In this document: one piece after another, positions 39,401 through 42,400 of the stretch
How the letters are laid out: each line of letters starts with the position of its first letter
How positions within the stretch are numbered: the first letter of the stretch is position 1
Made by a program: the position numbers
Source: an uncultured Gemmatimonadales bacterium
GTDB taxonomy: Bacteria > Gemmatimonadota > Gemmatimonadetes > Gemmatimonadales > GWC2-71-9
DNA length: 64,000 nucleotides
Direction: 5' to 3'
Assembly (NCBI GenBank): GCA_963828735.1
Contig: CAWHFW010000005.1
Span: forward strand, 1,120,001-1,184,000

Positions 39401-42400
39401 GCGAGAGGATCTTGATGCGTGAGGTGAGCGCCGCCTTCATCCTGAGCGGCGGACGCATGATCTCGAGCAGCGCGCCGTCGATCCGGTAGCGCACCCGGAT
39501 CTCGTGTTCGAACGGCTCGATGTGGATGTCGCTCGCGCCCCGCTTCACCGCCTCGATCAGCAACCCGTTGATGAGTTTGACCACCGGCGCGTCCTCGATC
39601 TGCGCCTGGGTGGCGGTCTCTTCCTCCTGTTCCTCGACGACCTCCAGGTCCTCGCCCGCGGCCTCCATGTCCTTGAGGAGGGTATCGAGCTCCTGCTGGT
39701 TGTTGCCCGACTGGTAGTGCTTTTCGATCAGCGCGCGCAGGGTGTACTCCCCGGCGATGACCGGGAAGAGATCGAAGCGGGTGATGAACTTGAGGTCTTC
39801 GAGCAGGCCGAGGTCGCTCGGATCGGCCATGGCGACGGTGAGCGTCCGCCCTTCGCGCTTGAGCGGGAGCACGACGCCTTTGGCGGCCATGTCCCCGGGC
39901 ACGAGCTTCAGGATCTTGGGGTCGACATCGAACCGCGACAGATCCACCGCCGGCATCCGGTACTGGCGGGCGAGGATCTTGGTGATCTCGATTTCCGGGA
40001 CGAGCCCCAGCTTCACCAGGACGAAGCCCAGGCGTTGCTTGGAGGCCTTCTGCTCGAGGAGCGCCTGTGTGAGCTGCTCGCGCGAGATGAGGCCATCACG
40101 CAGAAGGTTTTCGCCGAGCCGGTCGCTGCCGCCCGCCGCTGCGGTTGCCATTGAGTCCCGTGAGATCCGGATATGAGAGTGGTCGGGAGTGCAAGCGGCT
40201 GAAACCCGCGGAGACGGTGGGTCATCGACCCCCTACGCTCACGCGATCCTTCAGCCGAGCCAGGGCAGCCGCACCGAAACCCGGTACCCGAGCTAATTCT
40301 TGCACAGCACGGAACGGGCCGTTGGTCTCCCTATAGCTGACGATGGCCCGGGCGCCGGCCGGGCCGATGCCCGGGAGGGCGTCCAACATCGAGACATCGG
40401 CGGTGTTCAGGTTCACGACGGCCGCACCGGAAGGATCGGCCGGAGCCCCCGGCCGCGTTGAGGTTACCGCGAGCCTAGCGCCCAGGGACGAGGGCCCGGA
40501 GAAGGCAAGGTGCGGGCCTATGGCGGCCAGGAGACCGGCCCCGACGCCGGGGACCCGGTCGAGGCCGGCCAGCTCCCCGAATGGACCCCGAGCCTCGCGA
40601 TCCGCCACGATTTTCTTGGCGAGCGCGAGACCTACCCGGGGCAGCCTGGCCAGATCCGTGGCGGAGGCCCGGTCCGCATCGATTCGCTCGGAGGGACCGA
40701 GGGGCCGCGCGCGGGCGAGGATGCTGTCCCGGTGCGCGGCCGGCGAGCGCGGCGGCAGGGCGGCCAGTAGCTGGATTTCGCCCGGTGCATCGCCGGGCCT
40801 GACCAGCCACCAGCGGACACCCTGGCCCACGAGCCCCAGCGAGAGCAGCAGGAGCAGCGCGCGACGTTCCGCGGCGGACATGGAACGATGCTAGATCTGC
40901 GGGGAGGATGGTGCAGAGGCAGGATGCCGCGCGAGAGGCCGGAATCGCGCGGCGAGGTGACGGCGATTTCGGCGCTACTGCTCTCGCCGCACCAGTTCGA
41001 GCGCGACGTCACCGACGATCTGGAGACTCGCGCCGCTCACCTTGTCGATCGTGTCGTCCTTGGTGTGCCACGAGGGATAGTCGAAGTCCACGACGTCGAT
41101 GGCGCGGATGCCAACCTTCTGCAGCTCCAGGTGGTCATCGATCAGGGTGTGCTTCGGCGTGGCGACGAACGTGCCCGCGTAGCCCAGGTCCTTCGCGGTG
41201 TTCCAGACGAGCTCGACCACCTCGGGCGCTCCGACCAGCGAGTTCCCTTCCTCGAAAATCTGCAGGTCCTTGTCGGCGATGAGATCGAACAGGACCGCGT
41301 AGAGCGGCTGCGCGCCGGGCGCCTGGTGCGCGGCGTAATAGCGCGACCCGATCAGGACGTCCTTCGGCGTCTTGGTGAAGTCGCCGTAGTCCTCGCCGTC
41401 CACGAACAGCAGATCCACCCCGACCGTCGGCGGGGCGCGCTTGAGCACATCGGCCACGCCGAGCAGCAGGGCAACGCCAGAGGCGCCGTCGTTGGCGCCG
41501 GGCACCGGCTTGGTCGAGTCGGTGGACGTAGGGCTGTCCGCGGTCGGGCGACTGTCCCAGTGCGCGAGGAACAGGAGCCGCTTGCTTGCGCCGGGCTTGA
41601 ACCGCGCGACGAAGTTGGTGAGCGCGAGCGAGTCGCGGGCGGCGGTGACGTGGGTCCAGGACTGCACGATCAGGGTGTCGGAGCGCTGGCGCAGCAACGA
41701 GTCGAGCCACGCCGTCATCCGCTGGTGTGCCTCGGTCCCCGGAATGCGAGGACCAAACGCCACCTGGGCCTCGAGGTAGCGGAACGCCGAGGTGCCGTCG
41801 AACTCGCGCACGTGCGGCTTCGACTCGCGGCAGGCCGGGAGCAGAAGCGCAGCGAGAAGCAGATATCGGCGTCGCATGGGCAGGATGAAACCGCGCTCGG
41901 GTGGGAAAGTCAACGAGCAGCGATGATGGTGCTACCGGTAGTCGCCGGCGAACAACGAGAGCTGGAACGAGGCGATGATCGAGAGCTGCGACGTCCGGCG
42001 GCTCAGGTGCCGTGCGTCGTTCAAGGTATACCCGACCTGGAGGCCCCCGCTCAGCGTCTGCAACAAATCCGTGTCCACGCCGCCGCGCACCTCGCGTCGC
42101 CGCACATCCGAGATCAGGATGCAGTCGCCCACGTCGCCCTGGTGGATGCAGGTGCGGGCCTTCGTCTGCAGGTACGTGAGCGAGCTCCGCACCGGCTTCC
42201 GCGCGCGGCTCACGGAGCGTGGCAGCCGGATGGTGTACGTGAGCGAGCCGGTGACATCGTTCTGCTGGAGCTGGGTCTCGTTTCCGTTGGACAGGTTGTC
42301 CTGGCCAAGCGTGGTGAGGCCGAGCGTGACGTTTAGGCCGTTCCGGAATCCGAGCTGGACATCCGGCGTCACGGACGACGACTTGATGCTGGTGAGCGCC

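Follow-up and report, generated by a model that had tools for sequence, protein, structure and literature searches.

A PgQC-type glutaminyl cyclase gene behind sprA and a probable Bacteroidetes-like Q-rule in Gemmatimonadales

Previous work on P. gingivalis and other Bacteroidetes has described a Q-rule, in which glutamine is enriched at position +1 after signal peptidase I (SPase I) cleavage sites regardless of the destination of the protein, together with a glutaminyl cyclase (QC), PgQC (PG2157) (PMC5837995, PMC10653852). PgQC is a lipoprotein type II QC with Glu-Asp at the position of human residues 201/202, and type I and type II QCs are reported to segregate between Bacteroidetes lineages in a largely complementary manner (PMC5837995). 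In P. gingivalis, cyclisation is reported on the periplasmic side and pyroglutamate stabilises proteins against aminopeptidases (PMC10653852), and sorting by the T9SS is reported not to be under the control of pyroglutamate (PMC5837995). Exported proteins have been said to be capped by N-terminal pyroglutamate "exclusively in the Bacteroidetes phylum", with QC as a selective drug target (PMC10653852, Szczesniak 2023). That type II QCs are not confined to Bacteroidetes was nevertheless known before, from the structures of the enzymes of Fimbriiglobus ruber (7d1b) and an Acidobacteriales bacterium (7d18).

Determined by SignalP, the Q-values of Bacteroidetes species lie above 48% with a mean of 71% (PMC5837995). 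High values outside that phylum are given for Ignavibacterium (77%), Chloroherpeton (55%) and a few cyanobacteria, while the supplement lists Spirochaetes at a mean of 20% (maximum 46%) and many cyanobacteria at 20-26% (PMC5837995). For phyla other than Bacteroidetes and Chlorobi the same paper also describes a continuum of 2-77% that it does not itemise and in which Gemmatimonadota may be included without being mentioned; the phylum is not named in the text or supplements of Bochtler 2018 (PMC5837995). We found no report of a Q-rule or of a sprA-QC pairing in Gemmatimonadota in the literature searched, most subscription papers lying outside the search.

To our reading of a 64,000-nt window (the whole stretch of DNA analysed, G000:C5:1120001-1184000) and of the 4.78 Mb, 69% GC Gemmatimonadales genome from which it comes (G000), the likely explanation is a general envelope system, a Bacteroidetes-type Q-rule operating in this genome and its class, of which the QC is not a dedicated T9SS part. 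A known system is thereby extended to a lineage new for it, and the extension is real and well supported; it is moderately surprising, given the high Q-values published in 2018 for Ignavibacterium, Chloroherpeton and a few cyanobacteria, as cited above.

The cyclase gene and its product

The gene at 40975..41877 (minus strand) has an ATG start and encodes a 300-aa protein matching Pfam M28 (E 9e-31). By lipobox pattern it begins with a predicted SPase II signal peptide (41830..41877, minus strand) that ends at Cys16 of the lipobox L-L-P-A-C, and of 116 orthologue ORFs, 89 have a lipobox-like Cys by pattern. An upstream TTG start at 41913 was set aside; it would add 12 residues before a typical lipoprotein signal.

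The closest PDB sequence match is the T. forsythia QC (6qro, E 3.8e-53), followed by 3tc8, 4fuu/7d1d, 3gux and then the P. gingivalis QC (6qql/7cje). An AlphaFold2 model (pLDDT 92) retrieved the same bacteroidal QC entries in Foldseek at TM 0.80-0.92, and every row listed was a QC or a re-annotated entry (3tc8, 4fuu, 3gux). The best of these (TM 0.88-0.92) place the protein in one fold with the type II QCs TfQC (6qro), BtQC (4fuu/7d1d), PdQC (3tc8), PgQC (6qql/7cje) and that of F. ruber (7d1b), and it shares the zinc ligands, the D-G peptide and the Trp before the last His with these enzymes and with the Acidobacteriales QC (7d18). It differs from them in sequence (~30-34% identity in structural alignments), in a shorter loop before W-H and in a Tyr near the position of PgF294.

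The site residues are H106, D108, D130-G131, E162-D163, D198, D247-D248-H249 and W270-H271. By alignment, D130, D163 and H271 would be the zinc ligands (compare PgD149, D183 and H299) and E162 and D198 the catalytic residues (compare human E201 and D248). Bacteroidal QCs are reported to be distinguished from aminopeptidases by a Gly after the bridging Asp, an Asp as second ligand and a Trp before the last His, with aminopeptidases carrying Asn/Asp and Tyr in place of the Gly and the Trp (PMC7948796, Taudte 2021); here all three QC features are present, as G131, D163 and W270. The combined signature of D-G, E-D, DDH and W-H occurs in this gene alone among the 11 strong M28 matches of the genome (taken from 16 listed, five weak ones being left out), and each motif occurs in 102-116 of the 116 orthologue ORFs, one of which is from the unpublished genome G053. 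A homologue search returned relatives 82-90% identical only; the 80 closest relatives share 67-88% identity and have records naming Gemmatimonadales, Gemmatimonadaceae or Gemmatimonadota, and many close relatives have already been named "glutaminyl-peptide cyclotransferase" by JGI.

These data support the claim of an earlier note on this DNA that the gene (its g02879, annotated as peptidase M28) encodes a PgQC-type lipoprotein QC, the predicted activity resting on homology, fold and signature residues. It is hardly credible that the product is instead an M28 aminopeptidase. Such a reading could draw on the profile matches, which are to Pfam M28 only and to no QC-specific NCBIfam model, on the name "aminopeptidase" attached to some of the PDB matches, and on the retained second-zinc ligands, as reported for all QCs (PMC11312887). 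Against it, the entries 3tc8, 4fuu and 3gux have themselves been proposed as QCs (PMC7948796), the combination of D-G, E-D and W-H features is present here and missing from the ten M28 paralogues, and the Foldseek rows listed point the same way.

Predicted glutamine at +1 in the source genome and its class

The earlier note had put Gln at +1 in 37% of predicted SPase I substrates against 2.9% in the proteome. Using a home-made gene caller (4218 genes; proteome Gln 2.9%) and an independent home-made signal-peptide scorer blind to +1, both of which mis-call sites, we obtained 457 SPI-class proteins, 293 of them above the site threshold. Gln stood at +1 in 116 of the 293 (40%), with Ala next at 35. 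The earlier figures were thus reproduced in kind, and the exact count of 151/406 was not, because the predictor differs. Since the blind site often lies a few residues too far upstream, a permissive count of any valid -3/-1 site followed by Gln was also made. It gave 202 of 293 proteins (69%), compared with 6% for Glu and 10% for Asp counted in the same way and with 75 +/- 6 proteins (maximum 93) in 500 within-window shuffles.

The bias is also visible when no cleavage site is chosen: 57% of c-region Gln residues are preceded by Ala, versus 12-19% for E, D, K, N and T. Likewise, the residue after AxA is Gln in 102 of 335 cases in signal c-regions, while elsewhere in the genome Gln follows AxA in 3.1% of cases in mature parts, 3.7% in proteins without a signal peptide and 1.8% in lipoproteins. 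Collapsing paralogues to 249 clusters leaves 38% blind and 66% permissive, the bias is present on all 7 contigs, and dropping 68 sites with P/L/I/V/F/W/M at +1 gives Gln at 116 of 225 (52%). Among TonB-receptor matches, a domain-defined set of 13 that includes one without a resolvable start and leaves out a 14th, sub-threshold match, 11 have an A-Q site by eye. The real Q-value of this genome is between 40% (blind) and 69% (permissive), and many, probably most, of its exported proteins are predicted to start with Gln after signal-peptide cleavage.

The same pipeline was applied to 400 kb of E. coli K-12 and to 200 kb each of a Cupriavidus megaplasmid and an Azospirillum plasmid. In E. coli the +1 residue was Ala at 8 of 17 sites and Gln at one; blind counts of Gln were 2/16 in Cupriavidus and 2/8 in Azospirillum (permissive 4/8). 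Pooled, the controls gave 5/41 blind and 9/41 permissive, and the source genome differs in the blind count (116/293 vs 5/41, Fisher p 4e-4). It should be noted that its 40% lies under the Bacteroidetes range and overlaps the top of the Spirochaetes range, with a home-made predictor here and SignalP there. The blind 40% alone is not enough for a Bacteroidetes-level rule, because the Azospirillum plasmid and the 2018 supplement show that a moderate Gln preference at +1 is common.

Samples of 140-400 kb from seven other genomes of the same class gave Gln at 30 of 90 sites blind and 65 of 90 permissive, versus 9/41 permissive in the controls (p 1e-7). This bias appears whatever the QC: in genomes with type II (G010, G057), with type I only (G054, G060, G063) and with none found (G109, G113), the last two having Gln at 5 of 10 blind sites. 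In families f10-f12, sampled in five genomes from the other classes together with G008, the counts were 10/43 blind and 14/43 permissive (p 0.33 vs controls), the f11 and f12 part being small (340 kb, 15 scored signal peptides), and most PorV N-termini of f10 and f11 are without Gln. Because the genomes are kin, all of these p-values overstate. The suggestion that the Q-rule is a property of Gemmatimonadota consequently stood for the class of the source genome and was too broad for the other classes, in which the bias looks weak or absent and the blind count is not different from controls. A Bacteroidetes-like Q-rule in the source genome and its class is supported by the recomputation, by the outgroup controls and by the complementarity of the two QC types described below. 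Compared with the Bacteroidetes rule, this one belongs to another phylum in whose other classes it fades, and its Q-value is bracketed by a home-made predictor rather than read from SignalP.

Type I and type II cyclases across the phylum

That an orthologue of the type II QC is common across the phylum, as first proposed from fewer genomes, was confirmed: one is present in 105 of 121 genomes, the source genome included; leaving out the unpublished G053 and G093 makes it 103 of 119. Eighty of 120 genomes were examined further, comprising all 16 type-II-negative genomes, all distant ones and 16 of the 55 of the home family. Strong matches to the unrelated type I QC (PF05096) were found in 12 of the 16 genomes without type II versus 10 of the 64 with it, kin again not being independent, and every one-to-three-contig genome without type II carries type I. 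A profile search found no type I QC in the source genome (the control was positive in 3 genomes). One type or the other is present in 76 of the 80 sampled genomes; the remaining four (G071, G082, G109 and G113, 95-96% complete) gave no QC-level match when searched again with a 10-sequence QC alignment. The two types are thus complementary in the manner described for Bacteroidetes (PMC5837995), a distribution that speaks for selection on QC function.

The distribution also bears on whether the Gln excess, though real, lies elsewhere than at +1 or is not enzymatically capped, reflecting cleavage at A-Q-A with Gln at -2, a preference of the signal peptidase or spontaneous cyclisation, with the QC serving a few other substrates. 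The blind predictor did take A-Q-A|D in 19 of 44 SprA relatives, and the permissive Gln sites are followed by Ala in 44 of 202 cases, which could be A-Q-A cleavages, and by A/G/S in 80 of 202; values of 20-46% are known from phyla for which no such rule has been described (PMC5837995), and the QC is kept in other classes that show no clear bias. A-Q-A cleavage, however, explains at most those 44 sites, leaving 78% in which some other residue comes after the Gln. At blind sites, Gln occupies -2 in 9% of cases here versus 7% in controls, compared with 40% versus 12% for +1. SprA relatives keep their Gln while the following residue varies (13 of 44 not Ala, by eye), and nearly all sampled genomes have kept a QC of one or the other type. 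We give this explanation little credence.

The preferred reading, a general capping system of the envelope, would work as follows. Sec precursors carry signal peptides ending in [A/L/V]-x-A followed by Gln, as the statistics show for 40-69% of predicted SPase I substrates, and SPase I would expose the N-terminal Gln, as in P. gingivalis. A lipid-anchored, periplasm-facing, single-zinc type II QC, as homology, fold and signature suggest, would then cyclise this Gln to pyroglutamate, releasing ammonia. By analogy with the P. gingivalis work, the cap may shield periplasmic and outer-membrane proteins, SprA and PorV included, from the cell's own amino- and dipeptidyl-peptidases; lineages that lose the type II enzyme would mostly rely on the type I QC that they carry instead. 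The source genome encodes candidates for such peptidases, namely the ten further strong M28 matches and two full DPP-IV-like genes. An S46 (DPP7/DPP11) peptidase was not found in it (the control was positive in 2 genomes), a difference from the P. gingivalis system.

The Gln bias and the near-universal presence of a QC of either type in Gemmatimonadales suggest a wider range for capping than Bacteroidetes and indicate that it arose earlier, within the FCB group. They also predict blocked N-termini that proteomics of Gemmatimonadales would miss unless they are searched for.

Gene order around sprA and its relation to T9SS

The QC begins 54 nt after the stop of sprA/sov (41932..48006, minus strand), which encodes a 2024-aa homologue of the T9SS outer-membrane translocon (TIGR04189, 497 bits against a cut-off of 200; PF14349), so that the placement of the QC gene immediately downstream of sprA holds for this genome. 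The SprA signal peptide most likely ends at L-C-A|Gln21, as judged from the N-termini of 44 relatives. The minus-strand order continues with a gene for a ComEA-like helix-hairpin-helix protein (40222..40881, profile match), 93 nt after the QC stop, and, after 70 nt, with the type IV pilus assembly ATPase gene pilB (38433..40151, TIGR02538 above cut-off), followed by the ATPase gene pilT/pilU (37309..38436, TIGR01420 above cut-off) and the platform protein gene pilC (36091..37293, PF00482). Divergent from sprA and part of the same conserved block are lptF and lptG (48095..51078, plus strand, PF03739). This setting of the QC in a sprA-comEA-pil block is a further difference from P. gingivalis.

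The proposal that the QC lies behind sprA across the phylum stood in part. In the 53 genomes with both genes, the QC is directly behind sprA in 37 and within 2.6 kb in two, sprA ends in distant genomes being estimated from partial matches; three near-complete genomes of f7 have the genes far apart, and 11 genomes have them on separate contigs (all nine of f10, plus G112 and G003, the latter with each gene at the end of its contig). Among close relatives the QC adjoins sprA in 68 of 76 loci and comEA follows the QC in 63 of 71. Metagenomic loci show adjacency in 29 of 62 cases, including 12 of 21 with GC <=0.56, whose QC is only 40-46% identical. G006, G009 and G012, which belong to other classes, preserve the complete order lptG-lptF / sprA-QC-comEA-pilB-pilT-pilC; only the QC is missing from it in G060, G063 and G113, and only sprA in G010.

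The remaining T9SS components are sparse. A porV-family gene (minus strand, NF033709, 139 bits against a cut-off of 90) occupies 62946..64000 and runs to contig position 1184088 past the window end; its predicted N-terminus is A-A-A|Gln. A 1351-aa gene just before it has a weak PorU match. GldK scores 96 bits against a cut-off of 350, GldM gave no match in the source genome or in any of the 80 genomes and GldN none either (searches without a positive control), and the TIGR04183 CTD profile has one marginal match, although divergent CTDs would be missed. Compared with the T9SS of Flavobacterium johnsoniae and P. gingivalis, the system thus shares SprA and PorV above cut-off and the weak PorU match, and looks like a reduced T9SS at most. 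Gemmatimonadetes are listed among the phyla possibly having T9SS in one paper (PMC11285876) and left out by another (PMC4793230).

It is conceivable that the QC is a dedicated partner of this reduced, motor-less T9SS (SprA, PorV, PorU-like), capping the translocon or its cargo or binding SprA, hence the gene pairing. The adjacency counts in genomes, close loci and metagenomic loci favour this, as does the conserved Gln of SprA itself, and sprA and porV (in 64 and 65 of the 80 genomes) are lost together, which indicates a module. The QC, however, stays when that module is lost: 15 of 16 sprA-less genomes retain a QC. Conversely, sprA is retained in 11 genomes that have no type II QC, and G063 has its type I QC at a distance of 1.6 Mb from sprA. 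Moreover, comEA tracks the QC about equally well, the whole lptFG-to-pilC order is conserved, Gln sites occur in TonB receptors and peptidases, proteins that are not T9SS cargo, and T9SS sorting in P. gingivalis is reported not to be controlled by pyroglutamate (PMC5837995). We regard a dedicated partnership as unlikely. The special tie to the translocon that the earlier note had implied is not supported, because the adjacency lies within a larger block, either gene can be lost while the other stays, and families f7 and f10 do not keep the pairing. The sprA-QC adjacency is old and forms one link in a longer run of envelope genes; conserved gene order accounts for it best, not dependency. Capping and T9SS are not obligately linked by the genomic evidence here. 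Lineages with a type I or a type II QC, with or without sprA, provide a natural experiment on that link.

A speculative possibility, which we consider doubtful, is that sprA and the QC gene are left over as a pair from an envelope operon of the FCB-group ancestor, whose motor-less T9SS (SprA, PorV and PorU-like, beside a type IV pilus motor) depended on pyroglutamate capping of translocon or cargo, the Q-rule and T9SS having arisen together before Bacteroidetes. If true, this would explain the long-noted phylogenetic coincidence of the Q-rule and T9SS.

The block lptG-lptF / sprA-QC-comEA-pilB-pilT-pilC is an ancestral envelope block and probably forms one transcription unit. Consensus matches alone suggest a sigma-70-like promoter upstream of sprA (48048..48076, minus strand) and a divergent one facing lptF (48027..48055, plus strand). 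A terminator scan gave no site between sprA and pilB, but with 3 sites versus 5.4 in shuffles this absence carries no weight. Thirteen soil metatranscriptome runs contained at most 29% of the sampled words, and contigs from four RNA runs cover pieces of sprA and the QC. One 307-nt contig from an RNA library bridges the sprA-QC junction (41781-42087); being strandless and possibly derived from DNA, it is a weak hint of the dedicated partnership discussed above.

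Surroundings of the glutaminyl cyclase gene

A comEA-like gene (40222-40881, minus strand) lies behind the type II (PgQC-like) glutaminyl cyclase (QC) gene, and this arrangement is conserved in 63 of the 71 loci. The comEA-like gene was overlooked by the gene caller written for this analysis, and its codon use is atypical. In two genomes of family f2 (G016 and G072), an insertion of approximately 2.5 kb separates the QC gene from the T9SS translocon gene sprA, and in two loci of family f10 (L218 in G002 and L225 in G014) the QC gene is found behind nadB, not behind sprA. Since nadB-nadA-nadC in the window (51182-54512) comes next after lptG, the relocation in f10 may represent a local rearrangement within the same block.

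SprA, PorV and the T9SS motor

The window contains both sprA (41932-48006, minus strand) and porV (62946-64000), the latter preceded by a PorU-like gene of 1351 aa. Across the source genome and 80 genomes of the phylum, PorV and SprA are present jointly and lost jointly. No GldK, GldM or GldN was found above cut-off, the searches for GldM and GldN having given no match in a control genome either. The T9SS is possibly a motor-less system here. The block that holds sprA also carries the genes for the type IV pilus motor, pilB, pilT and pilC.

Most home-class genomes carry 1-3 copies of the PorV family, which is greatly enlarged in f10 genomes (e.g., G005 and G011), to 9 to 23 copies in each. In three genomes of genus g37 (G063, G088 and G099), SprA totals 980-1480 bits against the profile TIGR04189, about twice the value of other genomes, and QC is type I in place of type II.

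Other gene clusters in the window

Pfam matches identify an ABC ATPase, a fused ABC-2 permease/ABC_transp_aux/DUF7088 protein and a DUF4340 protein (29971-34088, plus strand), a cluster that resembles GldA-GldF-GldG. Pfam also identifies CtaA/COX15 fused to a UbiA-family domain in one gene (55896-57860, plus strand; 633-654 aa), which probably combines heme A synthase and heme O synthase. Type IV pilin-like genes cluster with a two-component pair at 608-6563 (minus strand) and include two tandem 140-aa pilins (5654-6076 and 6141-6563, minus strand) whose first 60 residues are identical.
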